Origin: Polyangia bacterium
GTDB lineage: Bacteria > Myxococcota_A > Polyangia > Palsa-1104 > JAEUJZ01
Direction: 5' to 3'
DNA: 64,000 nt
NCBI GenBank assembly: GCA_044222245.1
Contig: JBGANQ010000001.1
Span: 126,239-190,238 of the forward strand
The stretch's first letter is position 1. Every line of letters starts with the position of its first letter. Positions 5,301 through 24,544 of this stretch are shown here, in pieces. The notes beneath the pieces are model-generated. The model was given only the letters and a program-made list of their open reading frames with translations, had not been told where the DNA came from and made no database searches. The position numbers were made by a program, and so were the translations under genes.

Positions 5301-5480
5301 GTCACATGGCGGCGCGCAGGGGCGACGAGGCGGTCACATTTAGGCCAAAAGCAGTAAACCTCTTTGCAAAAGTTCCGATAACTAACTTATGCGTCGGACA
5401 GGGGGTCTGGCAGACCTGGGGGGCCCGGGCGAGTTGCGGCGGACCGGACAGCCGGGCCGCGCCGGCACGGAAAAAGCCGC

Positions 5481-6833
5481 ATGAGCCAGGATGCGCGCAG
5501 CTGGAGCTTCCCGCTCTCGTTCTGGACCGCCAACGTCATCGAAGCTGCCGAGCGCGCCGCCTACTACGGCTGGTTCATCATGCTCGCCCCCTTCCTCACC
5601 TCGGTGGTGGGCTACAGCGACATCGCGGCGGGCTACATCGGCGGCTGCTTCGCGGCGCTGCTCTACCTTCTGCCGTTTGTGAGCGGCGCCTTCGCCGACC
5701 GCGTCGGCTACCGCCGGGCGCTGATGCTGGCGATGGCGCTTTTGGGCAGCGGCTATGCGGCGATCGGTCTTGTCCCGCGCAAGGGCTTTGTCCTTATCGC
5801 CATGGCGTCGATCATGCTCGGCGGCTCGCTGGTAAAGCCGATCATCACCGGCACGGTCGCCCGCACCTCTGACAAAGCGCACCGGGCGCGCGCCTTCAGC
5901 CTGTTTTACATGATGGTGAACATCGGCGCCTTCACCGGCAAGACCATCGCCAAGCCGATCCGCAGCGCGCTCGGGCTGGCCGCGCTGCCGCTGTTCTCGG
6001 CGACGGTGGCGCTGCTGGCCCTGGTCGCCGTCGCCCTGTTTTACCGCCCCAAGGAGTCCGCCGCGGTCGCCGGGGAGAACAAGTCGGCGCCGCCGTCGCT
6101 TGGGCAGGTGCTGCGCCAGCTGCGGGACGACTTCGCCCAGGTCCTGCACTCGGGTCGGCTGATCGCGCTCATCGTCATCACCGGCGGATTTTGGATCATC
6201 CAGAGCCAGATGTACTCGTCGATGCCCAAGTTCGTGCTGCGCACCGTCGGCGCCGCCGCCAGTCCCGAGTGGTACGCCAACGTCAACCCGACCCTGGTCG
6301 TGCTGTGCGTGGTGCCGGTCACCCAGCTGTGCCGGCGGCTGCAGCCGGTGACCTCGATGACGATCGCGCTCGGCCTCATCCCGCTGTCGGCGCTGGCGAT
6401 TGCGCTCCTGCCGCGCACCCTGGGCGCCGTCGGGCCGCTGCACCCGGTGACGGTGGCGATGGTGCTCGGCATCGCCCTGCAGGGCTTCTCGGAGTGCTTC
6501 CTGAGCCCGCGCTACCTGGAGTATGCCTCGCACCTGGCGCCCCGGGACAAAGAGGCGCTGTACATGGGGTACGCCCACCTCAACCAGTTCCTCGCCTGGC
6601 TGATCGGCTACATCCTGTCGGGCTACCTGCTAAACGCCTTCTGCCCTAACCCCGAGACGCTGCCGCCCGCCGACCAGGCGGCTCATGCCGCGGCGCTGGC
6701 CGCCGGCGGCGTCCTGCCGGCGGCCTACGCCCACGCCCACTACCTGTGGTTCGTGTTCGCCGCCATCGGCAGCTGCGCCTTCCTGGCGCTATTGGTGTTC
6801 CAGGTGGTCACCCGTCGCCCCGCCGCCCGCTGA
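5481..6833 (+). CDS. POT/PTR2-family (MFS) di-/tripeptide:proton symporter
   Basis: PTR2 signature FWTANVIEAAERAAYYGWFIML (ExxERFxYYG-like), GAFADRVGYRRAL, about 12 predicted TM segments. Confidence 0.7.
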   Translation: MSQDARSWSFPLSFWTANVIEAAERAAYYGWFIMLAPFLTSVVGYSDIAAGYIGGCFAALLYLLPFVSGAFADRVGYRRALMLAMALLGSGYAAIGLVPRKGFVLIAMASIMLGGSLVKPIITGTVARTSDKAHRARAFSLFYMMVNIGAFTGKTIAKPIRSALGLAALPLFSATVALLALVAVALFYRPKESAAVAGENKSAPPSLGQVLRQLRDDFAQVLHSGRLIALIVITGGFWIIQSQMYSSMPKFVLRTVGAAASPEWYANVNPTLVVLCVVPVTQLCRRLQPVTSMTIALGLIPLSALAIALLPRTLGAVGPLHPVTVAMVLGIALQGFSECFLSPRYLEYASHLAPRDKEALYMGYAHLNQFLAWLIGYILSGYLLNAFCPNPETLPPADQAAHAAALAAGGVLPAAYAHAHYLWFVFAAIGSCAFLALLVFQVVTRRPAAR

Positions 6834-6869
6834 GCAGGGGTTGCCGCGCGCCCGCGCGCTTGTGGTAAG

Positions 6870-7889
6870 TTGCCGCCGATGAAGGCGTTGGAGATTAAAG
6901 TCGGGGCGCTGATCGTCGTCTCGCTCGGGCTGCTCGTCGGGTTTGTCGCGCTGCTCGGCGGGCTGCAGCTGACGCCGACGTTTCGCGTCTTTGTCGACTA
7001 TGACTTCTCGGGCAACATCCACGCCGGGGCGCCGGTCAAGATCTCGGGGATCAAGGTCGGCAAGGTCGACGACGTGCTGTTCCTTGGCGGCGAGCTCGAT
7101 CCCGAGGTCAAGCGGCGGGTGCAGGTGCGCCTGGTCGTGCGCATCGAGCAGCGGGCGCAGAGCGCCATCCACGAGGGCGCCGAGTTCTTCGTCAACACCC
7201 AGGGCGTGCTCGGCGAGCAGTACCTGGAGATCGCCCCCGGCGACTACGACAAGCCGACGCTCAAGCCGGGCACCAAGGTACGCGGCGTCGATCCCCCGCG
7301 CACCGACCTCATCATCGCCCGGCTTTACGAGTTCCTCGACGCGGTGACGAGCCTGCTGCGCGAGGACAAGGAGGTGCTGCGCGACCTGCTTCGCTCGGGG
7401 GCCAAGGTGGCGCGCAGCCTCGACAAGCTGCTTGGCGAGAACCAGGACGACGTCAAGAAGCTGCTGCACGATCTGGATCGCCTGACCGCGGCGAGCGCCG
7501 ACTTCATCGCCAAGCTTGACAAGGGCGTCGGCTCGGCCGAGGACCTGCGCCGCACCGTCGCCAACATCGAGGCGATCAGCAACGAGCTGCACGCCGAGCT
7601 CGGGCCGCTGCTGCAAAAGACCAAGCGCGCCCTGGACGGCGTGAGCGAGGTCGCCGGGCTGCTCGGACCCGAGGACAAGAAGAAGCTGCTGCGCGCCCTG
7701 GACGAGCTCTTGCTGGTCGGCAACAAGGTCCAGGCGGTGGCCACCGACGCCGCGTCGCTGGTCGGCGATCTGAAAAAAGGCCGCGGCACGGTGGGGGCGC
7801 TGCTCGTCGATCAGCAGATCTACGACGACCTCAAGGAGCTGACCCGCGACCTCAAGCGCAACCCGTGGAAGTTCTTCTGGAAGGAGTAG
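6870..7889 (+). CDS. MCE/MlaD-family protein
   Basis: N-terminal TM (IVVSLGLLVGFVALLGG) followed by MCE domain (FRVFVDYDFSGNIHAGAPVKISGIKVGKVDDV...VQVRLVVR) and long coiled-coil C-terminus. Confidence 0.75.
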   Translation: MPPMKALEIKVGALIVVSLGLLVGFVALLGGLQLTPTFRVFVDYDFSGNIHAGAPVKISGIKVGKVDDVLFLGGELDPEVKRRVQVRLVVRIEQRAQSAIHEGAEFFVNTQGVLGEQYLEIAPGDYDKPTLKPGTKVRGVDPPRTDLIIARLYEFLDAVTSLLREDKEVLRDLLRSGAKVARSLDKLLGENQDDVKKLLHDLDRLTAASADFIAKLDKGVGSAEDLRRTVANIEAISNELHAELGPLLQKTKRALDGVSEVAGLLGPEDKKKLLRALDELLLVGNKVQAVATDAASLVGDLKKGRGTVGALLVDQQIYDDLKELTRDLKRNPWKFFWKE

Positions 7890-7892
7890 CGC

Positions 7893-9017
7893 GTGAGCCT
7901 GGGGCCGCCCTTTGACCACAGCGGCGAGCGGCTGCGTCTCATCCTCGGCGCGGCGACGGGGGTGACGCTGCTGGTGGCGATCGGCGTCGCGCTCCTGGCC
8001 GCCGACCGCTCGCTCGGCGAGGCGGTGACCGTGCACATGCTGGTGCAGCGGCCGGGGGCCCTGCACACCGGGGCGCTGGTGCGGGTGGCCGGCGAGCAGA
8101 TCGGCGAGGTGGTGGCGATCCGCGGCCATCGCCCCGAGGCCGGTCTGCGCGACGGCCCCGGCGCGGCCGAGAGCGCCGAGCCCGGCGTCGACATCGAGCT
8201 GCGCCTGCGCAAGCGCTGGGCGAGCCGGATCTACGACAACTCCACCTTCCTGCCGGTCAATCCCACCGTGCTCGCCGAGGCCCTCATCGAGATCGGCCCG
8301 CCGGCGGGCGGCGCCGCCCCGGGCAGCCCGATCGGTGCCGAGCAGCGGGTGCGCGGCGTCGAGCCGGCGGATCTCGACCAGCTGCTGCGCCGGGTCTACC
8401 AGAGCATCGAGCTGACGCTGCAACAGGCGCGCGAGCTGGGCGCCGAGTGGACCGAGCTGAACGAGGCCTTCACCGCGCTGTCGGCGCGCCTGTCCGTGAG
8501 CCTGCCCGACACCCTGCGCGTGCAGGTCCAGGGGGCGGCGGCGCGCCAGGGCATCGAGCAGCTGCTTGGCACCCTGCGCGCCGGCCGCGCCGACGAGCTG
8601 CCCGAGCTCACCCGGCAGCTGGATCGCTCGCTGACGCCGCTGGTGCGGCAGTTCCAGCTGCTGGGGGCGCAGGGGGAGCTGCTGCAGGCGCGGGCGCGCG
8701 AGCTCGGGCAGGCGCTCGGACCGGGCCAGCAGGCAGAGCTGCGCCGCGCCATCGCCCAGCTGCGCACCGCCCTCTCCGCCGGCGAGCAGCTCGCCGCCGA
8801 TGCCCGCTTCCTCATCCGCTATGTCGACAGCGGGCGCGGCACCCTGGGCGGCTTCAGCCAGGACATGCAGATCTTCGACGAGCTAAAAGATACAAGCCGC
8901 ATCCTCAAGCAGCAGAGCTGGCGGCTGCTCATCAAGCGCCGCGACTCGGCCGCGCCCGCCGCGCCGGTCGCGCCCGCCGGACCTCCGGGCAGAGCCCCCG
9001 CGCGCCCCTCCCCCTAG
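7893..9017 (+). CDS. MCE/MlaD-family protein (paralog)
   Basis: GTG start 4 nt after previous stop. TM helix then MCE-like core (VTVHMLVQRPGALHTGALVRVAGEQIGEVVAI), coiled-coil tail. Confidence 0.65.
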   Translation: MSLGPPFDHSGERLRLILGAATGVTLLVAIGVALLAADRSLGEAVTVHMLVQRPGALHTGALVRVAGEQIGEVVAIRGHRPEAGLRDGPGAAESAEPGVDIELRLRKRWASRIYDNSTFLPVNPTVLAEALIEIGPPAGGAAPGSPIGAEQRVRGVEPADLDQLLRRVYQSIELTLQQARELGAEWTELNEAFTALSARLSVSLPDTLRVQVQGAAARQGIEQLLGTLRAGRADELPELTRQLDRSLTPLVRQFQLLGAQGELLQARARELGQALGPGQQAELRRAIAQLRTALSAGEQLAADARFLIRYVDSGRGTLGGFSQDMQIFDELKDTSRILKQQSWRLLIKRRDSAAPAAPVAPAGPPGRAPARPSP

Positions 9018-9118: not shown

Positions 9119-10234
9119 ATGGCAGGCCCCCTGGTGAGCAGAAACGATGCAGCTCGCGGTCTTGGCGCTCGCGCCCACGCGATTCCCGCGCGCTGCGCCG
9201 CCGCGTGGCCGGTCGGGCTGGTGGGCGGGCTGGCCCTCGCCACGGCCTGCCATGACGAGCAGGTCGCAACTGCGCTGCAGAAAAAGACCCAGGCCGCTGC
9301 CGCTGCTGCTGCTGCTGCCGCCGCGCCGACCGGCCCAAGTCAGCCTCCCAGGCCGAGCGTCGTCCTGTTCAGCCGCCGGCACGGTCAGCTGCTGCCGCTG
9401 GCCTGCTACAGCGAGGTGACCCAGAGGCTGCACGCGGGCAGCGACTGCGCCGGCCTGCTCCCCGAGGATGCCGAGGTCCGCATCGGCGACACCTACGGCG
9501 GGCGGCTGCGACCGGGCCAGCCGCTGGTCTGCCAGACCAAGACCGGCCCGCTGGTGCTGCCGACCTTCGGCCTGCTGGAGGGCCCGCCCGGCGACGCCGG
9601 TCCGCAGCCGGGACCGCCGCTGGCGCTGTGGTCGTCCGGACCGCTGCCCAAGCTGGAGCTGCCCCCGAGCCCGCCCGAGCCGCTGCCGCTGCCGCCCAGC
9701 GAGTCGCTGTACATCACCAACTCGTCGCGCAACCTGCTGCCGCCGGCGCAGCGGCTGCTCATCGGGCAGGTCGTGGTCGACAACGTGTGGACGGTCGATC
9801 TCGATGCCGACGGCCTGCGCGAGCGGCTCGATCAGGTGCGCCTGCTGGAGGTCCGCCGCCGCTTCATGATGCTCACCGGCGTGTTCGTGGTCGCCGGCAA
9901 GGACGCGGTGGCGCTGCGGCCGCTGCGGGTGCAGCTCATCCCCCCCGAGCAGCGCGAGCGCCTCGGCCGCGACGACCACAGCTACGACGTGAAGATGCTC
10001 GCGGCGCTCGACCTGGATCACGACAGCCGGCGCGAGCTGTGGCTGCAGGTCGCCCGACCCGAGACGACCACCGACTCGCTCGGGCGCTTCACCGACACCG
10101 GGCTTGCAGTGTTCGCCGAGCTGACCTGCCCGAACCAGCCGGCCGCTGTCTCACCGCCGCCGCCCCCGCCGCCCCCCGCAGCTGGTCGGCCACCCGGCGC
10201 CGCCCCGCCCAAGGGCCAAGGACCGCGACCGTGA
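9119..10234 (+). CDS. hypothetical Pro-rich lipoprotein
   Basis: ORF with LVGGLALATAC lipobox-like segment, poly-Ala stretch, PPPPPPPP tail. Start uncertain. Confidence 0.35.
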   Translation: MAGPLVSRNDAARGLGARAHAIPARCAAAWPVGLVGGLALATACHDEQVATALQKKTQAAAAAAAAAAAPTGPSQPPRPSVVLFSRRHGQLLPLACYSEVTQRLHAGSDCAGLLPEDAEVRIGDTYGGRLRPGQPLVCQTKTGPLVLPTFGLLEGPPGDAGPQPGPPLALWSSGPLPKLELPPSPPEPLPLPPSESLYITNSSRNLLPPAQRLLIGQVVVDNVWTVDLDADGLRERLDQVRLLEVRRRFMMLTGVFVVAGKDAVALRPLRVQLIPPEQRERLGRDDHSYDVKMLAALDLDHDSRRELWLQVARPETTTDSLGRFTDTGLAVFAELTCPNQPAAVSPPPPPPPPAAGRPPGAAPPKGQGPRP

Positions 10235-10262
10235 CCCGCGACCGCAGCCAGACCCCCCGCGC

Positions 10263-11801
10263 ATGATCAGCGCCGAGCTACGCCGCCAGGTCGACCGCCT
10301 CTGGACCGCGTTCTGGACCGGCGGCATCACCAACCCGCTGGAGGTCGTGGAGCAGCTTACCTACCTCCTGTTCCTGCGGCGCCTGGACGACCTGCAGACC
10401 CTGGCCGAGACCGCCGCCGCCGACCCCCAGCGTCCCCTCGCGCGCAGCCTCTTCCCCGACGGGGTGACCGCCAGCGGCCGCCCGCTGGCCGAGCTGCGCT
10501 GGTCGCACTTCAAGCACCTGGCGCCGGGCCCGCTGTTCAGCCTCTTTGCCGAGGATGTCTTTCCGTTTCTGCGCACGCTCGGCGCCGCCGACTCGACCTA
10601 CGGTCACCACATGCGGGATGCGCGCTTCACCATCCCCCGGCCCGAGCTCCTCGCCAAGGTGGTCGACCTCATCGACCGCATGCAGCTCGACGAAGCCGAC
10701 ACCAAGGGCGACCTGTACGAGTACATGCTCAGCAAGCTCGCCAGCGCCGGGCGCAACGGGCAGTTCCGCACGCCCCGCCACCTCATCGCGCTGATGGTCG
10801 AGCTGACGGCGCCGCGTCCGGGCGACTCGATCTGCGATCCCGCCGCCGGCACCTGCGGCTTTCTGGTCGCGGCGGGCGAGTACCTGCGGGCCCACCACGG
10901 CGCGCTGTTTGCCGACCCCGCCGAGCGCGAGCACTTCCACCGCTGCATGTTCCACGGCTTCGAGGTCGACAGCACCATGCTGCGCATCGGCAGCATGAAC
11001 ATGCTGCTGCACGGGGTGGACGGCCCCGCCATCGCCTACCGCGACTCCCTGGCCCAGGCCGACGGCGGCGAACAAGACAAGTACAGCCTGATCCTCGCCA
11101 ACCCGCCGTTTTCCGGCTCGCTCGACGAGGCGCTGTGCGCCCGCGAGCTGCGGCAGGTGGTAAAGACCCGCAAGACCGAGCTCCTGTTTGTCGCCCTGTG
11201 CCTGCGCCTCTTGCGGCGCGGCGGGCGCGCGGCGATGATCGTGCCCGACGGGGTGCTGTGCGGCGCCAGCGCGGCCCACCGGACGCTGCGTGCGCTGCTG
11301 GTCGAGCAGCAGAAGCTCGAGGCGGTGATCGCGCTGCCGGGCGGCGCCTTCCGGCCCTACGCCGGCGTCTGCACCGCCATCCTCCTTTTTACCAAGACCG
11401 ACTGCGGCGGCACCGAGCAGGTCTGGTTCTACGACCTGGTCGCCGACGGCTTCAGCCTGGACGACAAGCGCCAGCCGCTCTTGCCGCCCGACAAGCTGGG
11501 CGCGACGCCGCCGACCCCGCTGACCGCCGCCGAGCACGCCGCCAACAACCTGCCCGATCTCCTGTCCCGCTTTTGCCAGCGCGACTGCGCCGAGCGCCAG
11601 CGCCCGCGCACCGCGCAGAGCTTCTGCGTCCCCAAGGCCGACCTGGTGGCGCAGGGCTATGACCTGAGCCTGGGCCGCTACCAGCAGGTCGCGCCCGCCC
11701 CCAGCCCCCCGCGCGAGCCGCAGCAGGTGCTGGCCCGGCTGGTCGAGCTCGAGGCAGAGATCCAGCAGGGAATCCGCGAGCTGACCGAGCTGCTTGCATG
11801 A
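10263..11801 (+). CDS. hsdM: type I restriction-modification system DNA methyltransferase subunit HsdM
   Basis: HsdM_N region, GQFRTPRHL (GxFxTPR), SAM-binding DPAAGTCGFL, catalytic NPPF (LILANPPFSGS). Confidence 0.9.
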   Translation: MISAELRRQVDRLWTAFWTGGITNPLEVVEQLTYLLFLRRLDDLQTLAETAAADPQRPLARSLFPDGVTASGRPLAELRWSHFKHLAPGPLFSLFAEDVFPFLRTLGAADSTYGHHMRDARFTIPRPELLAKVVDLIDRMQLDEADTKGDLYEYMLSKLASAGRNGQFRTPRHLIALMVELTAPRPGDSICDPAAGTCGFLVAAGEYLRAHHGALFADPAEREHFHRCMFHGFEVDSTMLRIGSMNMLLHGVDGPAIAYRDSLAQADGGEQDKYSLILANPPFSGSLDEALCARELRQVVKTRKTELLFVALCLRLLRRGGRAAMIVPDGVLCGASAAHRTLRALLVEQQKLEAVIALPGGAFRPYAGVCTAILLFTKTDCGGTEQVWFYDLVADGFSLDDKRQPLLPPDKLGATPPTPLTAAEHAANNLPDLLSRFCQRDCAERQRPRTAQSFCVPKADLVAQGYDLSLGRYQQVAPAPSPPREPQQVLARLVELEAEIQQGIRELTELLA

Positions 11802-12991
11802 CGGAGGTCGCGCTCGGGACGCTGTTTCAGCTCATCCGCAACGGCCTGAGCATCGGCCAGGACAAGTCGGGCCGCGGTCTGCCCATCGCCCGCATCGAGA
11901 CCATCGCCGACTCCGAGATCAACCAAGCCCGCGTCGGCTACGCCGGTCTGGACGAGAGCGGGTGCCGCTCCTTCCTGCTGCAGCCCGGCGACATCCTGTT
12001 CAGCCACATCAACAGCGTCCCCCACCTCGGCAAGTGCGCGGTCTACCGCGGCCGCCCCGAGAAGCTGGTGCACGGCATGAACCTTTTGTGCCTGCGGCCC
12101 GAGACGACCCGCCTGCTCCCCGAGTTTGCCAAGCACCTGCTGCGCAGCCCCACCTTCCGCAGCCGCGCGCTGCCCTACGTCAAAAAGGCGGTCAATCAGG
12201 CGAGCATCTCGATCGAAAACCTGAGGACGATTCCGGTGCCGCTGCCGCCGCTGGCCGAGCAGCGCCGGATCGCTGCGGTGCTCGACCGGGCCGACGAGCT
12301 GCGCGCCAAGCGCCGCCAGAGCCTGGCCGAGCTGCAGGCGCTGCCGCAGGCCATCTTTCACTCGCTGGTTGGCGATCCGGTGCAAAACCCCCGCGGGTGG
12401 CCGCGCGTCACCTTGGCAGAGGTCATCGTCAGCGCCGCCGACGGACCGCACGCCAGCCCCCAGTACTCCCGGGACGGCGTCCCCTTGCTGTCGACCCGGC
12501 ATGTGCGCCCGGGGGAGATCGTCTGGGAGGACCTAAAGACGATCAGCCCGGCGGCGGCCGAGGTGCAGTGGCGCAAGCGCCGGCCCGCACGGGGCGACAT
12601 CCTTTACACCAAGGGCGGGACCACCGGCGTCGCCGCGGTGGTCGATACGGACGTAAAGTTCGCGGTCTGGGTGCACCTGGCCCTGCTGAAGCTGAAGCGG
12701 CAGCTGGTGGAGCCCTTCTGGCTGGAGGAGATGCTCAACAGCCCCTTCTGTCACGCCCAGGCGCAGCGGCTGACCCAGGGAATCGCCAACCGCGATCTCG
12801 GCCTCAAGAAGATGGTCCACATCGCCCTGCTGCTGCCGCCGCTCGAGCTGCAGCGCGAGTTTGTTCGCCGCCGCGCCGCCATCGCTCCCCTCAAGCGCGC
12901 CCAGCGCGCCTCGCTGGCCGAGCTCGATGCGCTGTTTGCCGCGCTGCAGCATCAGGCGTTCGGCGGCGACCTGCCGCGGCCTGGGGGCTGA
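11798..12991 (+). CDS. hsdS: type I R-M specificity subunit HsdS (two target-recognition domains)
   Basis: Overlaps hsdM stop (ATGA). Two TRD-like halves separated by conserved coiled-coil spacers (LPPLAEQRRIAAVLDRADELRAKRRQSLAEL ... LPPLELQREFVRRRAAI). Confidence 0.8.
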   Translation: MTEVALGTLFQLIRNGLSIGQDKSGRGLPIARIETIADSEINQARVGYAGLDESGCRSFLLQPGDILFSHINSVPHLGKCAVYRGRPEKLVHGMNLLCLRPETTRLLPEFAKHLLRSPTFRSRALPYVKKAVNQASISIENLRTIPVPLPPLAEQRRIAAVLDRADELRAKRRQSLAELQALPQAIFHSLVGDPVQNPRGWPRVTLAEVIVSAADGPHASPQYSRDGVPLLSTRHVRPGEIVWEDLKTISPAAAEVQWRKRRPARGDILYTKGGTTGVAAVVDTDVKFAVWVHLALLKLKRQLVEPFWLEEMLNSPFCHAQAQRLTQGIANRDLGLKKMVHIALLLPPLELQREFVRRRAAIAPLKRAQRASLAELDALFAALQHQAFGGDLPRPGG

Positions 12992-13153
12992 GCGGCGGCG
13001 CCCCGGGAGCCTCTGGCCGCCTTTGCCAGCGTCGCGCGGCGGGCAGCCGACTCTGGCCCTGCAGCCTCAGGGCCGTTACACTGCGGCCACAGGCTGCGGC
13101 GGCGCCCCGGTCGCCGACCGCCGCGCCGCTCGCGCGCCGCCAAGGAGTGCTCC

Positions 13154-15280
<2,127 letters not shown>

Positions 15281-15371
15281 GCCGCTCCGGCGCGCTCCGC
15301 CGGGTGCTGGTGAGCCGGTGCCGCACACCGGCCGCCTTTACACCGCGGTCCCGGGCAAGTAGGGTGCAGGC

Positions 15372-15713
15372 ATGAGTCAGTCGCTCACAGACAGCGAGTT
15401 CGACAAGCTCGCCGACGCGCAGCTCAGCAAGCTGTACAAGTTGCTCATGGACTTCGACCCCGATGAGATCGAGGCCGAGCTGGCGCTGGGGGTCCTGTCG
15501 ATCACCGTCCTTAACCAGCACAAGGTGGTGATCAACAGCCACCGCGCGGCGCGCCAGATCTGGATGGCGGCGCAGCGCAAGGCCTGGCACTTCGATCCAA
15601 ACCCCGCCTCCGCCTCGTTCACCACGGCCGACGCCGAGCTGCTAGCCACTGTCGAGAAGGTGCTGGGCGAGCTGCTCCGGCGACCCTTCACCCTGCCGGC
15701 CGCCCGCCGCTAG
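15372..15713 (+). CDS. cyaY: frataxin-like iron donor protein CyaY
   Basis: SDSEFDKLADAQLSKL...GVLSI...HKVVINSHRAARQIWMAAQRKAWHFD aligns with E. coli CyaY (EFHRLAD..GVLTI..IIINRQEPLHQVWLA..GGYHFD). Confidence 0.75.
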   Translation: MSQSLTDSEFDKLADAQLSKLYKLLMDFDPDEIEAELALGVLSITVLNQHKVVINSHRAARQIWMAAQRKAWHFDPNPASASFTTADAELLATVEKVLGELLRRPFTLPAARR

Positions 15714-18222: not shown

Positions 18223-19318
18223 AGGCGCCGGCGCCGAGCCGCAGATCCTGACGAGCCGAGACGGAGTCGCCGTGCCCGCGCCGAGTCGCAGCCCGCTTTT
18301 CCCGGTCAGCGCCGAGACGCTCGCCCAGGCGGCGGCGCTGCTGCAGCGCGACGAGGTCTGCGCCTTCCCCACCGAGACCGTGTACGGCCTGGGCGGCAGC
18401 GCGCTGTCCCCGGCAGCGATCGAGCGGATCTACGCCCTCAAGGGACGCCCCCGGTATAACCCGCTCATCGTCCACGTCGGCGACGCCGCCGCCGCGGCGC
18501 AGCTGGCCGGGGCGTGGCCGGCGGTGGCGCAGCAGCTGGCGGCGCGCTTCTGGCCGGGGCCGCTCACCCTGGTGGTGCCGCGCGGGGCCGCGGTGCCGGC
18601 GCTGGTCAGTGCCGGCCTGCCGACGATGGCGCTGCGCGTCCCGGCGCATCCGGTGGCACTGTCGCTGTTGCGCGCCGCGCGGCTGCCGCTGGCCGCCCCC
18701 AGCGCCAACCGCTCGGAGTCGGTGTCGCCGACCACCGCCGCCCACGTCCTGGGCAGCCTGCCGGCGGTGCCGCTCATCCTCGATGGCGGCCCGTGCCCGC
18801 TCGGCATCGAGTCGACGGTGGTCGATCTGACGACCTCGCCGCCGCGCCTGTTGCGCTCTGGGGCGCTGCCGCTGCGGGCGCTGCTCGCGGTGCTGCCCGA
18901 CCTCGCGCTGCCGGAAGCGGCGCAGTCGCTCGGGCCCGAGCCCGATGCCCAGGCGCCGCGCGCCGCTCCGGGCATGCTGGGGCGCCACTACGCGCCGCGG
19001 GCGCCGATGTGCCTGCTGCCGCCGGCGCTGACCACGCTGACGCCGGCGCAGCTCGCCGCGCTGCCGCCGCCGCGCGGGCTGCTCACCTACCGGCCGCTGC
19101 CCGCGCTGACGGCACACTTTGCGCACGTCGAGCAGCTCGCTGCCGAGCCGCCGGCATTCGCCGCCGATCTCTATGCCGCGCTGCACCGCCTCGATGAGGC
19201 GGGCGTGGCCAGCATCGCCGCGCTGGCCCCGCCGCCCGACCTCGACTGGCACGCCATCGCCGACCGCCTGCGTCGCGCTAGCGCGGCGCCTTCTGCTTGG
19301 CCACCCACTCGCGAGTGA
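18212..19318 (+). CDS. tsaC: L-threonylcarbamoyladenylate synthase (TsaC/Sua5/YwlC long form)
   Basis: AFPTETVYGLGGSAL, RIYALKGRPRYNPLIVHV, FWPGPLTLVVPR (YrdC domain) plus Sua5 C-terminal domain. Confidence 0.85.
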   Translation: MPTEGAGAEPQILTSRDGVAVPAPSRSPLFPVSAETLAQAAALLQRDEVCAFPTETVYGLGGSALSPAAIERIYALKGRPRYNPLIVHVGDAAAAAQLAGAWPAVAQQLAARFWPGPLTLVVPRGAAVPALVSAGLPTMALRVPAHPVALSLLRAARLPLAAPSANRSESVSPTTAAHVLGSLPAVPLILDGGPCPLGIESTVVDLTTSPPRLLRSGALPLRALLAVLPDLALPEAAQSLGPEPDAQAPRAAPGMLGRHYAPRAPMCLLPPALTTLTPAQLAALPPPRGLLTYRPLPALTAHFAHVEQLAAEPPAFAADLYAALHRLDEAGVASIAALAPPPDLDWHAIADRLRRASAAPSAWPPTRE

Positions 19319-19778
19319 CCTGGGCGGCGGTGTCGTAGGCCTCGCGCATCTGGTCGATCATCAGCTTCTCAATCCTGCCGCCCAAAAGCGGCACCAGGAT
19401 CTTGACCTCGCCGGCGAACTCGCGCCGACACCGCCCCGGACCAAGCGGCGTGACGTTGAACGAGGAGCTCATCTGGAACCGCTCCTTCATCAGCATCGGC
19501 TCGATGCGCACCGCCATCTTCGAGGTCGCCTTGTCCAGCACGTCATACTCGGTGTAGCCGGTGTCCTTGATGACCGAGGCGGCCCACGACGGGACCGCCA
19601 GCTCGGGCTCCATCCGCTGGGTGCGCCGCACCAGGTTGCCCTCGTCCTTGTGCTCCAGCACCGTGCGGGTGCGGATCTTCAGGCGCTTGTACAGATCCTC
19701 TTCGTAGGGCTTGCTGAAGAACAGGTCCCAGAACCCCTGCGGGTCGATGTCGAAATCATGGGCGAAGCTAAAGTTCAT
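19278..19778 (-). CDS. DUF2505-like (SRPBCC fold) hypothetical protein
   Basis: 166-aa ORF, mixed alpha/beta pattern reminiscent of polyketide-cyclase/SRPBCC small proteins. Identity by recollection only. Confidence 0.4.
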   Translation of the reverse strand: MNFSFAHDFDIDPQGFWDLFFSKPYEEDLYKRLKIRTRTVLEHKDEGNLVRRTQRMEPELAVPSWAASVIKDTGYTEYDVLDKATSKMAVRIEPMLMKERFQMSSSFNVTPLGPGRCRREFAGEVKILVPLLGGRIEKLMIDQMREAYDTAAQVTREWVAKQKAPR

Positions 19779-19833: not shown

Positions 19834-20112
19834 TCAGGCGAAGAGCTTCTTCAGCTCTTCTTTGATCTTCTCTTCGACCTTGCCCTTGATCGGGGACAGC
19901 GCGAACGACAGATCGAGGTTCACCTTGACCTGCGCCGGCTCGATCTTGATCGTGCCCGAGGCGCCGGTGCGCTCGACCTTGGCCTCGGTGTCGCTGTGCC
20001 ATTTCGAGGTCAGGCCGTACTTGTCCGAGAGCTCCTTGCTGAGGGCCTCGAGCTTGGTCTTGGCTTCGGCGGCGGTGACTTTGTGGCTCTGGGTGATCTC
20101 TAGCTTGGGCAT
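19834..20112 (-). CDS. polyhydroxyalkanoate-system small protein (PHA_gran_rgn family)
   Basis: Start at MPKLEITQSH. C-terminal LSFALSPIKGKVEEKIKEELKKLF matches the LSxxKGxIExxIxxxL pattern of the family; good RBS spacing. Confidence 0.5.
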   Translation of the reverse strand: MPKLEITQSHKVTAAEAKTKLEALSKELSDKYGLTSKWHSDTEAKVERTGASGTIKIEPAQVKVNLDLSFALSPIKGKVEEKIKEELKKLFA

Positions 20113-20207
20113 GGCCCGTACTCCTTGAGGTCTTTGTAAGGGTGAGATGCGGGGACACAAGGTCCGCGATGGTGCTGCATATATCATGTGCTAGCCTCGA
20201 CCGCGAG

Positions 20208-21488
20208 ATGAACAAAATTTCGCCGCCAGCCGAGCCGGACAGCCAGCCCCGCGCGGCCGGGCTACCAGGTCCGGGCGCAGTGGCAGCCCGGGTCGAGGCC
20301 GAGCCCACCCCCGACCCGCGGCTCATCACCCGCTTTGCCTCCTCCGGCGGTTGAGCGGCCAAGGTGGGTCCGGGCGACCTGCAAGAGATCATGCAAGACG
20401 TCCAAGACGCTGCGGGCGTCCAGGACCTCCCCGGCTCCGGTGAGGAGCTGGCGTCGGCGCTCGCGCCGGCGCCGGGGCAGGAGCTTGCCGGCCCCCCCGC
20501 GCTCGCCGGGGTCCGCCGCCGCCGCGACCCCGCGGTGCTCGTGTCCACCGAGACTGGCGACGACGCCGGCGTCTATCTTGTCCAGCCCGCCACGCCGGCG
20601 GGGGTGGGCATCGTCCAGACCGCCGATTTCATCACCCCGCCGTTTGACGATCCCGAGGGCTATGGGCAGATTGCCGCGGCCAACGCGCTCTCGGATGTCT
20701 ATGCGATGGGCGGGCGGCCGATCTCGGCGCTCAACCTGTGCGTGTTCCCGCCGGCCTTGGCCGCGACCAGCGCCCGCGCCATCCTGAGCGGCGCCAGCGC
20801 CAAGCTGCGCGAGGCGGGAGCGGTGCTGCTCGGCGGCCATACCGTGCGCGGCCCCGAGCTCCTGTTCGGCCTGGCGGTCACCGGCGTGGTGGCGCCGACC
20901 GCCATCTGGCGCAACGTCGGCGCCCGCCCCGGCGATGTCCTTTTGCTCACCAAGCCGCTCGGCTGCGGGCTGATTGTCACCGGGTCGCGCAAGGGCCTGG
21001 TCGCCGACGCCGAGCGCCAGGCCTGCCGCGCCGGCATGGTCAGCCTCAACCGCCGCGCCGCCGAGGTGCTGGCGCAGTTCGCGGTGCACGCGGCCACCGA
21101 TGTGACCGGCTTCGGACTGGCCGGCCACGCGCTGGGCATGACGCGACTTGAGGACGTATCGCTGCACCTGAAGGTGGGCGAGCTCCCGGTGTATCCGGGG
21201 GCGCTGGCGCTGGCCGCCCAGGGCGTGACCTGCGGCGGCGCCAAGAGCAACCGGCGCGCCTATAAAGATCGCCTCGCGCTGCAGGGGTCGCTAAGCCCTG
21301 CTTATGAGGAGCTGATCTTTGATCCGCAGACCTCTGGGGGCCTCTTGTGCGCGCTCGCTGCCGCCGACGCCGAGCCGGCGCTCGCGGCGCTGCGCGCCGC
21401 CGGGGTGCAGGCCTGCCGGATCGGCGAGGTCGGGGCGCGCGCGGCCGCGGCGCTGGTGGTGTACGGCGATGCGGGGGCGGGTCGCTGA
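20208..21488 (+). CDS. selD: selenide, water dikinase SelD (selenophosphate synthetase), selenocysteine-containing (in-frame TGA at about 20352-20354)
   Basis: ORFs 20142..20354 and 20364..21488 are in the same frame, separated only by TGA. Read-through gives RLITRFASSGG-U-AAKVGPGDLQEIM, aligning with E. coli IRLTQYSHGAG-C17-GCKISPKVLETIL (Sec at Cys17, Lys20 conserved). Downstream DDAGVY, ADFITP, AANALSDVYAMGGRP typical SelD. Alternative GTG start at about 20280. Confidence 0.85.
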
Positions 21489-22229: not shown

Positions 22230-23240
22230 TTACAGGGCGAGCAGGGCGGCGAGCAGCTGCTGGCGAGCCGCGGGCAGCGGCGCCTCGACGGCGATCCGGG
22301 CGCCGGCAGCGGCCTGCGGGTCCAGGGCGGGGAAGCGCAGCCGAGCGGCGTGCAGGAAATAGCCCGGGGCGCCCGCCAGCGTCGCGGGCGCATCCGCCAG
22401 GTCGAGCGGCCCGAGGTCCTGCGGGCGCGGGCCGCCGTACAGCTCATCGCCGACCAGCGGCAGCCCCAGGTGCGCCAGGTGGGCGCGAATCTGGTGGCGC
22501 CGCCCGGTCTGCGCCTGGGCCTGCAGCAGCGTGAAGCGCCGCCCGCGCGACAGGACGACAAACCGCGTGTAGGCATCCTGGGCGTCCCGGCGGTACATCT
22601 GATCCGGCGTCGCGGCGACCTGCACCCGGCGGTGACCGTCGGGGCCGCCGCCCGCGAGCAGCGGCAGCGCCAGCTCGAACTCGTCCTGGGTCGGCACCCC
22701 GGCGACCAGGGCCAGGTATTCCTTGTCGACCTGACCGGCGGAAAAAGCCGTTCGCAGCGCCTGCCAGGCGGCCGGGGTGCGCGCCGCGGCCAGCGCCCCG
22801 GTGGTGAAGGTGTCCAGGCGGTGGCCCAGGCCCCCCTCGCGCGGGCTATCGCTGGCGCGCGCGCACTCGGGGTAGCGGGCGACCAGGGCGTTGGCGACCG
22901 TGCCAAGCTCACCGGGGCGCAGCGGGTGACACGCCAGGCCGGCGGGCTTGTTGAGGACGACCACGGCGGCGTCCTGGTAAAGGACGGTGAGCGGCAGCTC
23001 GGGCTGCGGCTGCGGGGGCGTCCGCTGCGGATCGAGCGGCGGGGCGCGCAGCTCGACCCGCTGCCCGGCGGCCAGCACCTCGCCCTTTTTGCCCACCCGG
23101 CCATCGAGCAGCACCTGCCGCTCGCTGAACAGGCGCAGCGCCGCCCCGCGCGACAGCCCGGTCCGCTCGGCGACAAAAGAGTCCAGGCGGCAGCTCTGCT
23201 CGGCGGCGGCGACGACAAAGGTTCTGGCTTGATCGGTCAC
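22230..23240 (-). CDS. RluA-family (RluD-like) 23S rRNA pseudouridine synthase
   Basis: N-terminal S4 domain (RLDSFVAERTGLSRGAA...VLLDGRV), catalytic GHRLDTFTTG (HRLD motif), ...RRHQIRAHL. Confidence 0.85.
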   Translation of the reverse strand: MTDQARTFVVAAAEQSCRLDSFVAERTGLSRGAALRLFSERQVLLDGRVGKKGEVLAAGQRVELRAPPLDPQRTPPQPQPELPLTVLYQDAAVVVLNKPAGLACHPLRPGELGTVANALVARYPECARASDSPREGGLGHRLDTFTTGALAAARTPAAWQALRTAFSAGQVDKEYLALVAGVPTQDEFELALPLLAGGGPDGHRRVQVAATPDQMYRRDAQDAYTRFVVLSRGRRFTLLQAQAQTGRRHQIRAHLAHLGLPLVGDELYGGPRPQDLGPLDLADAPATLAGAPGYFLHAARLRFPALDPQAAAGARIAVEAPLPAARQQLLAALLAL

Positions 23241-23254
23241 TTTACACCGGCACT

Positions 23255-24544
23255 TTATACAGGTTGCAGCAGCGAGGCCAAGACGGTCGCCCCCGCCGGC
23301 AGCGCCGCCGGCCCGGGCGGCACATGCAGCAGCGCGTTGACCCCGACCATCGAGCGCAGCATCCCCGAGCCCTGGTGCCGCGGCGCCCGCCCGAGCAGCA
23401 CCGCCGGCTCATCGGCCGAGCGGCTGACCAGGGCGCGCATGAAGTGCAGCCGGTGGCGATCGGGCAGGATCGGCTCGACGAGCCGCACCGGGACAAGCGG
23501 CCGCTGCAGCGCCGCCCCGTCGAACCCGAGCAGCCGACGCAGGGCCGGCCGCACGAACAGCTCGAAGCTGACCATCGACGACGCCGGGTTGCCGGGCAGC
23601 CCGAACACCATCACCTCGGGCCCGCCGGCGCCGGGCGGCAGCAGCAGGAACTGCAGCGGCTTGCCGGGCCGCATCGCCACCTTGGAGAACTGCTCGGTCG
23701 CCCCGAGCAGGGCCAGGGCCTCGCGCACGTAGTCGAACTCGCCCACCGAGACCCCGCCCGACGAGATCACCACGTCGGCGCGCGCCGCCTCGGCAAAGCA
23801 GGCGGCGATGGCCTGGCGATCATCGGCGGCGATGGGCAGCACCCGCCCCACTGCCCCGACCTCGGTCACCTGGGCGAGCAGCGCGTGGGCGTTGCTGTTG
23901 ACGATCTGCCCCGGCCCCGGCGCCACGTCCGCGGTCACCAGCTCGTCCCCGGTGGAGACGATGGCGACCTGCGGGCGCCGGTGGACCTGCACCAGCGTCC
24001 GCCCGAGCGCCGAGAGGAGGCCGAGCTCGCCCGGGCCGAGCAGCACGCCGGCCGGCAGCACGACCTCGCCGGCGGCGATGTCCTCACCGGCGCGGCGGAT
24101 GTGCTGCCCGAGCGCCGCGGCGGCGCGGAAGCGCACTGCACCGGCCTGCTCGTCCGCCTCTTCTTTCATGATCACCGCGTCGGCCCCGGCGGGCAGCGGC
24201 GCCCCGGTCATGATGCGCACCACCGTCCCCGGGGCCAGCGGCTCTGTCGCCGGGTGGCCGGCGGCGATGACTCCGACCACCGGCAGCGGCTGGCCGACCT
24301 GGACCTCGGCGGCGCGCACCGCGTACCCGTCCATGGCCGAGCTGTCCCACGGCGGCAGCCGGCGCCCCGCGGTCACCGGCTCGCGCAGCACCCGCCCGAG
24401 CGCCGCCCCCAGCTCGACCACCTCGCCCGCCAGCGGGCGACAGCGGTGCAGGATAAGGGCCAGCGCCGCTTCCGGAGACAGCAGCTCCGGCACCACGGCT
24501 GCAGGCAGGGGCTTGTCGCCGGCCGGCGAATCAGGAGTGGTCAT
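23255..24544 (-). CDS. moeA: molybdopterin molybdenumtransferase MoeA
   Basis: PPWDSSAMDGYAVRA, RIMTGAPLPAGADAVIMKE, SSGGVSVGEFDYV, FGLPGNPASSMVSF. Confidence 0.9.
   Translation of the reverse strand: MTTPDSPAGDKPLPAAVVPELLSPEAALALILHRCRPLAGEVVELGAALGRVLREPVTAGRRLPPWDSSAMDGYAVRAAEVQVGQPLPVVGVIAAGHPATEPLAPGTVVRIMTGAPLPAGADAVIMKEEADEQAGAVRFRAAAALGQHIRRAGEDIAAGEVVLPAGVLLGPGELGLLSALGRTLVQVHRRPQVAIVSTGDELVTADVAPGPGQIVNSNAHALLAQVTEVGAVGRVLPIAADDRQAIAACFAEAARADVVISSGGVSVGEFDYVREALALLGATEQFSKVAMRPGKPLQFLLLPPGAGGPEVMVFGLPGNPASSMVSFELFVRPALRRLLGFDGAALQRPLVPVRLVEPILPDRHRLHFMRALVSRSADEPAVLLGRAPRHQGSGMLRSMVGVNALLHVPPGPAALPAGATVLASLLQPV

Follow-up and report, generated by a model that had tools for sequence, protein, structure and literature searches.

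The 64-kb stretch of Polyangia bacterium DNA analysed here (contig JBGANQ010000001.1, hereafter the window; G+C content 71%) carries on its forward strand selD, a gene for selenide, water dikinase, whose reading frame contains one internal TGA. The open reading frame (ORF) listing gives two ORFs in the same frame, 20142..20354 and 20364..21488, parted by nothing more than the TGA at 20352-20354. This split, which had been pointed out in a first-pass annotation of the DNA, is confirmed by translation, as the single-frame product of 20142-21488 has one internal stop in the context ...RLITRFASSGG*AAKVGPGDLQEIM..., with the peptide PDPRLITRFASSGG before the TGA and AAKVGPGDLQEIM after it. Comparison with orthologs and with known SelD proteins makes it very probable that the two ORFs are one gene, selD, at 20208..21488 (+), and that codon 49, a UGA, is decoded as selenocysteine (Sec) and not as a stop; the incorporation of selenium at this codon is a prediction from that comparison. 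The gene has 426 sense codons, Sec49 included, and its own terminator is again a TGA (21486-21488). Indeed, UGA terminates 19 of the 45 ORFs in the window, selD's own stop included, and since it works as an ordinary stop elsewhere in the window, the recoding must be local.

For homology searches, the TGA was replaced by a cysteine (Cys) codon in the read-through product. With the NCBIfam profile TIGR00476 (selenide, water dikinase SelD), whose cutoff is 125 bits, this product scores 324.2 bits; with NF002098 it scores 271, which lies under the stricter cutoff of 299 of that profile. In Pfam, it contains the AIRS (PF00586, 3.4e-22) and AIRS_C (PF02769, 2.6e-17) domains of the PurM-like fold, and its matches in the PDB include the SelD proteins of E. 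coli (3u0o, 5e-52) and Aquifex aeolicus (2yye, 3e-51). The AlphaFold model, which covers the residues after the UGA, has a confident core with a mean predicted local distance difference test score (pLDDT) of 88.9 and values above 90. The identity proposed in the first-pass annotation is thus borne out by TIGR00476 and by the AIRS and AIRS_C domains: by homology, the gene encodes SelD (selenophosphate synthetase), for which ATP-dependent synthesis of selenophosphate is predicted.

The same cannot be said of the gene start, which had been placed at GTG 20142. The ortholog alignment points to ATG 20208 (MNKISPP...) as the most likely start codon. In particular, an MNKxS or MDKFS start is kept in the orthologs, and the in-frame stretch 5' of ATG 20208 is conserved as DNA and not as a reading frame. 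In one ortholog (locus L033) this upstream stretch lies in a different frame and has an in-frame TAG relative to the ATG of that locus, while in another (L032) it carries a 5-nucleotide (nt) indel. Because the MNKxS motif is conserved and the upstream frame is broken in these two loci, the start is set at ATG 20208, which makes the Sec codon number 49. The features of the locus are collected in Table 1.

Table 1. Features at the selD locus, with window coordinates, strand and the evidence behind each call.
Feature	Position	Strand	Evidence
selD coding sequence (likely start)	20208..21488	+	Read-through translation, TIGR00476, AIRS/AIRS_C, PDB SelD matches, conserved MNKxS start
UGA predicted to be read as selenocysteine, Sec49	20352..20354	+	Aligns with E. 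coli SelD Cys17; TGA/TGC in orthologs
AAG codon, Lys52, equivalent of the essential E. coli SelD Lys20 (UxxK motif)	20361..20363	+	3u0o alignment
SECIS-type hairpin, 7-bp stem	20364..20382	+	Folding, bSECIS model, pairing and synonymous-site comparison
Low-complexity linker, 56 residues (59-114), from Sec loop/helix to AIRS core	20382..20549	+	Length comparison, pLDDT
Conserved non-coding leader/promoter region upstream of selD, core TATATCATGTGCTAGC	20153..20207	+	Ortholog alignment
SECIS, selenocysteine insertion sequence; bSECIS, bacterial SECIS; bp, base pair.

The UGA codon in the active-site loop and its orthologs

SelD requires a Gly-rich loop that holds Cys or Sec at the position of E. 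coli residue 17 and a lysine at that of Lys20. When the read-through product is aligned with 3u0o, SGG-U49-AA-K52 falls on GAG-C17-GC-K20, so that the UGA sits on Cys17 and Lys52 on Lys20, as had been claimed from the sequence at first pass. The spacing is that of the UxxK motif listed for SelD (PMC13188914 Table 1). The proposed alignment to a Sec-containing SelD gives a close match. Indeed, the Aquifex crystal sequence (2yye), SSGCAAKVGPGDLQEI, and SSGG-U-AAKVGPGDLQEI of the window agree almost residue for residue, with 2yye reading SSGCAAK at the site; native Aquifex SelD has Sec at this position and was reportedly crystallised as a Cys mutant.

The closest relatives of the gene are found in Myxococcota/Polyangia metagenome-assembled genomes (MAGs) and in metagenome contigs. 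TGA occupies the same codon in eight other loci of the Myxococcota clade (L001, L002, L020-L023, L031 and L034). Protein identity to the window is 77% for L001 and 70% for L002, and it ranges over 62-79% across the TGA-bearing clade loci where it was measured. In seven of these loci (L001, L002, L020-L023, L034) the TGA is preceded by PDPR(L/A/R)ITRFASSGG and followed by AAKVGPGDL, while the eighth, L031, is an independent JGI contig that is identical to the window and has the same TGA. Fifteen more distant selD loci, from Campylobacterota, Aquificota (Desulfurobacterium), Nitrospinota, Desulfobacterales and unassigned metagenome contigs, also have TGA there, and every Sec-type ortholog that was fetched carries TGA at this codon.

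The counterpart of this set is formed by four syntenic orthologs in which the UGA codon is replaced by TGC, coding for Cys: L030 (protein P0006, 64% identity), L032, L033 and L035. Cys is also found at this position in many Cys-type proteins, and the Cys-type orthologs are continuous ORFs across the site. The exchange of Sec and Cys at one codon, together with the conservation on both sides of it, effectively excludes a pseudogene, a sequencing error or a real start at GTG 20364. TGA and TGC orthologs that share a common synteny also offer a clear case from nature of how SelD exchanges Sec and Cys. One further protein, P0002 (369 aa, from an ENA contig of 1493 bp), was left out of these comparisons: over its C-terminal ~270 residues it matches the window protein at 100% identity, but its N-terminal ~90 residues come from a different SelD, of the Cys type. 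A chimeric metagenome assembly is its most likely source, although a recombination event may lie behind it.

A SECIS-type hairpin downstream of the UGA

A local recoding signal is expected in bacteria as a SECIS hairpin, and the first-pass annotation had suggested folding the region for one beginning about 11 nt after the UGA. A hairpin was found, and it bears the mark of synonymous constraint; its stem begins 9 nt past the UGA and not about 11. The strand GUGGGUC (20364-20370) pairs with GACCUGC (20376-20382) around the apical loop CGGGC (20371-20375), with a minimum free energy (MFE) of -9.0 kcal/mol, and the loop is reached after 16 nt. The GTG at 20364, from which the ORF caller starts its second ORF, is the first codon of the stem and, at the same time, encodes the Val of AAKVGPGDL. 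The bSECIS model (PMC13188914 Fig. 2) comprises a loop of 3-9 nt with a G within its first two positions, a stem of 4-16 bp, a distance from UGA to loop of 16-37 nt and an MFE of -7.5 kcal/mol or lower. The hairpin falls within all four constraints, having a 5-nt loop with G at position 2, a 7-bp stem, 16 nt between UGA and loop and -9.0 kcal/mol.

Selection on the hairpin can be read from synonymous sites. Six Sec-type orthologs of the clade were used in this test, and in comparisons between Sec-type genes, which are not independent of one another, the codons for identical residues at positions +1 to +10 are the same in 86% of cases, versus 62% in the rest of the gene. The corresponding values are 49% versus 54% gene-wide for Sec-Cys comparisons and 51% versus 52% for Cys-Cys comparisons. 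The direction of this codon freeze is consistent in most comparisons, the exceptions being some of the pairs that involve L021. Base pairing follows the same pattern. Indeed, the five core base pairs are intact in 65 of 65 cells across the 13 Sec-type sequences that bear the GP.DL peptide, versus 64% of cells in the four Cys orthologs, with pair 30-44 lost from each of the four and pair 32-42 from three of them. The Gly codon of the stem is GGT in 13 of the 13 GP-type Sec sequences, and GGT makes up 8% of the Gly codons of the window. SelDs of the SPVGL type retain a hairpin here, displaced by a single nucleotide and with the loop GGUC, and in these a compensatory pair is seen (AGUCC/GGACU to AGCCC/GGGCU). 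These comparisons identify a hairpin that, as judged from sequence conservation, is under synonymous-site selection only in the orthologs that bear a UGA: the SECIS is fixed at synonymous sites in the TGA set and decays in the TGC set.

A second fold was considered and rejected. When 99 nt are folded together, the 5' arm of the SECIS may instead pair with a downstream look-alike, CGUCCAGGACCUCC, to give a long imperfect hairpin at 20363-20430; the 99-nt fold as a whole has an energy of -43.7 kcal/mol, which is not significant versus shuffles (z = -1.7). The sequence of the linker differs among orthologs, so the longer hairpin is not conserved, and it is probably an accident of the G+C-rich sequence.

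Weighing selenocysteine against other readings of the UGA

Several observations weigh against the reading of codon 49 as Sec. Covariation in the GP-type set is weak, as three of the seven pairs are the same throughout and the signal does not rise above the shuffle controls; the structural case therefore rests on synonymous-site conservation and on the contrast between Sec and Cys orthologs. Single-sequence folds of 49-141 nt around the UGA are no better than shuffles, with z from +0.96 to -1.74, and the loop CGGGC is without the optional closing N1-N2 pair of the consensus. A search of the window with Rfam (4227 models) gave no match at the gathering threshold, and over 20300-20480 at E values up to 10 it returned chance microRNA matches only; this miss does not count against a SECIS, because the diversity of bSECIS elements exceeds what one model can capture. 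Finally, the 64-kb window is without selA, selB and tRNA-Sec. In particular, ARAGORN reports zero tRNAs of any kind in the window, Pfam scans of ~50 stop-to-stop ORFs of the window find no SelA, SelB, SelU or YqeB/C domain, and tblastn of E. coli SelA, E. coli SelB and the SelB of L034 gives no match in the window.

The genes for the Sec machinery are presumably located elsewhere in the genome, as had been anticipated at first pass, and their placement in related loci is consistent with this. Locus L034 comes from a Polyangia MAG (GCA_046351595.1), on a contig of 1.6 Mb, and has a TGA-type selD in the same DUF2505/PHA_gran_rgn/selD synteny. Directly downstream of this selD, and convergent with it, lies a gene with SelB-specific domains (L034 11073-13118, -). 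At the position of the L034 selB, the window has an RluA-type pseudouridine synthase gene (22230-23240, -) and moeA (23255-24544, -). A UGA-selD of the same type is directly followed by selA and selB in L007, L013 and L016 and by selB and then selA in L011, and in L012 selA stands at the end of the contig.

These placements bear on the alternative in which the UGA is read through, not as Sec, but by near-cognate suppression with a Trp or Cys tRNA in an organism that has no Sec system, with the hairpin acting as a pause or a stimulator of read-through. The lack of Sec machinery in the window would agree with this, as would a hairpin that is conserved rather than strongly covarying. The hairpin nonetheless fits the SelB-type bSECIS model and is found again in selD-selA-selB operons (L007, L011, L013, L016) and beside selB in the Polyangia MAG. 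Moreover, an enzyme with Trp as its catalytic residue would be inactive, and surveys report orphan selD genes without Sec machinery, yet no Sec-type SelD outside Sec-decoding organisms. Read-through with another amino acid is therefore very unlikely.

Hardly credible is the possibility that the TGA is a genuine stop and that the functional protein, of 374 aa, starts at GTG 20364, the upstream 48 codons being a separate small ORF or untranslated. It is what automated pipelines have called: the JGI protein P0001, 374 aa long and 100% identical, starts at this GTG, as the first-pass annotation had warned that a naive call would do, and about 37 of the best 120 database matches likewise start with [MV]GPGDL. 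Such a protein would be devoid of the Gly-rich loop that holds the equivalents of Cys/Sec17 and Lys20. Furthermore, the upstream PDPRLITRFASSGG is kept in frame in orthologs of 62-79% identity, the Cys-type orthologs run through the site without a break, and the GTG is a plain Val codon in a conserved peptide as well as the first codon of the stem. The 374-aa product is an annotation artefact without the catalytic loop. Herein lies the practical value of the corrected call, as P0001 and about 37 of the 120 closest entries begin after the UGA and are without that loop.

The remaining alternative, a pseudogene made by a nonsense change of the Cys codon or an error of sequencing or assembly, would need one base (TGC to TGA) and has close Cys-type orthologs such as L030 to start from, but it is effectively refuted by the comparative data, since the same TGA is present in the independent JGI contig, in the other clade loci and in the 15 distant ones, protein-level conservation persists on both sides of it, and the additional synonymous constraint downstream is limited to the genes that bear it.

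With UGA 49 taken as a Sec codon, the corrected call marks the organism as a probable user of selenocysteine, and it predicts selA, selB and selC, and probably more selenoproteins, elsewhere in the genome. A crude screen of the window for other in-frame TGAs with coding-like flanks returned antisense artefacts only; it also missed selD itself and is too insensitive. Other pairs of adjacent same-frame ORFs were dismissed as recoding candidates, as they represent separate genes with complete domains (MFS/MlaD/MlaD, hsdS/DUF255, beta-lactamase/GST and Big_5/FadL).

The selD neighbourhood and its relation to known systems

Apart from the UGA, the gene has a low-complexity N-terminal extension and a long linker, and these are the only unusual features of this SelD. 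The linker is rich in Ala, Gly, Pro and Gln, and is predicted to be disordered (pLDDT 48-62); even the nearest relatives differ in its length and sequence. None of the best 120 matches has a longer linker that is correctly delimited: 19-31 aa are typical of them, and the nearest relatives have 42-51 aa.

Upstream of the gene, the leader GGACACAAGGTCCGCGATGGTGCTGCATATATCATGTGCTAGCCTCGACCGCGAG shows stronger conservation than the coding sequence of the N-terminus. Its core, TATATCATGTGCTAGC, is kept in Sec- and Cys-type orthologs alike (L001, L002, L020, L022, L023, L030, L032 and L033). The leader is not coding, because its frame relative to the ATG differs in L033 and is shifted by the indel in L032; it could be a promoter, a leader or the binding site of a regulator. 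A scan of the region upstream of selD with the sigma-70 consensus gave no promoter match.

A PHA_gran_rgn gene (19835-20113, -) is divergent from selD and stands beside it in every locus of the Myxococcota clade, be it Sec- or Cys-type (L001, L002, L020-L023, L030-L035), and most of these loci also have a DUF2505 gene (19281-19778, -) alongside it. The Cys-type L030, L032, L033 and L035 all keep the divergent PHA_gran_rgn gene, and L030 and L033 keep DUF2505 as well. Neither gene is found near selD in other phyla, and the neighbourhood could reflect synteny at the level of the clade or a functional link.

Further away in the window lie genes of a type I restriction-modification system, hsdM (~10125-11801) and hsdS (11663-12991), with no hsdR noticed near them. 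HsdS is followed in the same frame by a gene for a 762-aa protein with DUF255/thioredoxin domains (12992-15280), and a frataxin-like gene is present at 15363-15713. Three consecutive stop-to-stop ORFs in one frame are found at 5382-9017, coding for an MFS transporter and two MlaD-domain proteins. They were rejected as recoding candidates, as each has a complete domain, and are regarded as separate genes.

From the established pathway of Sec insertion, a scheme for the expression of this selD can be proposed. SelB, with guanosine triphosphate and Sec-tRNA(Sec), would bind the hairpin at 20364-20382 while the ribosome is at the UGA, and Sec would be delivered at codon 49 in competition with release factor 2 (RF2). 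In the full-length SelD, Sec49 and Lys52, placed on a flexible loop, would then make selenophosphate from selenide and ATP. As SelA needs selenophosphate for the production of Sec-tRNA(Sec), the synthesis of SelD would depend on its own product, and the outcome would be a positive-feedback loop that senses selenium, a hypothesis present in the literature. Such an autoregulatory loop was reportedly proposed as a possibility by Guimaraes et al. in 1996. The first-pass annotation had described the arrangement as one of known autoregulation; "known" is too strong for what is a published hypothesis.

A broader idea is that the selD locus may be a selenium-responsive module, in which the leader is regulatory, the neighbouring genes take part in the handling or delivery of selenium, and, when selenium is scarce, ribosomes that terminate at the UGA re-initiate at GTG 20364 to give a SelD without the loop. 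It is suggested by the conserved leader, by the divergent pairing with PHA_gran_rgn/DUF2505 and by the position of the GTG within the SECIS stem, and it must be considered a long shot.

Set against known systems, the selD of the window is an ordinary new Sec-SelD in a well-known arrangement, and it leaves the knowledge of selenium biology unchanged. SelD is the second most widespread family of prokaryotic selenoproteins (PMC13188914), and it is found with FdhA in essentially every bacterial selenoproteome (PMC1794560). The same work documents Sec-to-Cys conversions for SelD and lists a Sec-SelD for a member of the Myxococcota, Anaeromyxobacter dehalogenans (PMC1794560 Table 3).

With the Sec-SelDs of Aquifex aeolicus (2yye/2zod), Haemophilus influenzae and Anaeromyxobacter dehalogenans, the protein shares the family hidden Markov model, the UxxK loop and the position of the UGA. 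The loop is nearly identical to that of Aquifex (SSG-U/C-AAKVGPGDLQEI), and the hairpin is contained here within the codons for KVGPGDL. Unlike its Sec-SelD relatives, the window protein has a low-complexity N-terminal extension of ~25 residues (relative to L021 and L034) and a disordered linker of 56 residues, versus about 19-31 in most. The gene also differs from Sec-SelD operons, as it does not stand beside selA/selB or selU and is instead divergent from PHA_gran_rgn and DUF2505.

The Cys-type SelD of E. coli (3u0o) has the same fold and domains and the equivalent Lys20, with a match of 5e-52 over the core; it uses Cys17, encoded by TGC, and needs no SECIS, whereas the window gene has a UGA. 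Within the clade, the Cys-type orthologs L030, L032, L033 and L035 have lost the integrity of the hairpin, unlike the window gene. In common with the bSECIS consensus and the SECIS of E. coli fdhF, the hairpin is a stem-loop directly 3' of the UGA and inside the coding region, with a G followed by a G in its loop. It has no sequence similarity to the fdhF element and no bulged U, and its loop is CGGGC and not GGUC, the loop found in the SPVGL-type SelDs. A parallel also exists with mammalian SEPHS2 (SPS2), where the selenium-donor enzyme is itself dependent on Sec and autoregulation has been hypothesised; SEPHS2, however, relies on a eukaryotic SECIS in the 3' untranslated region with SBP2 and EFSec, whereas the window gene has a SelB-type SECIS within its coding region.

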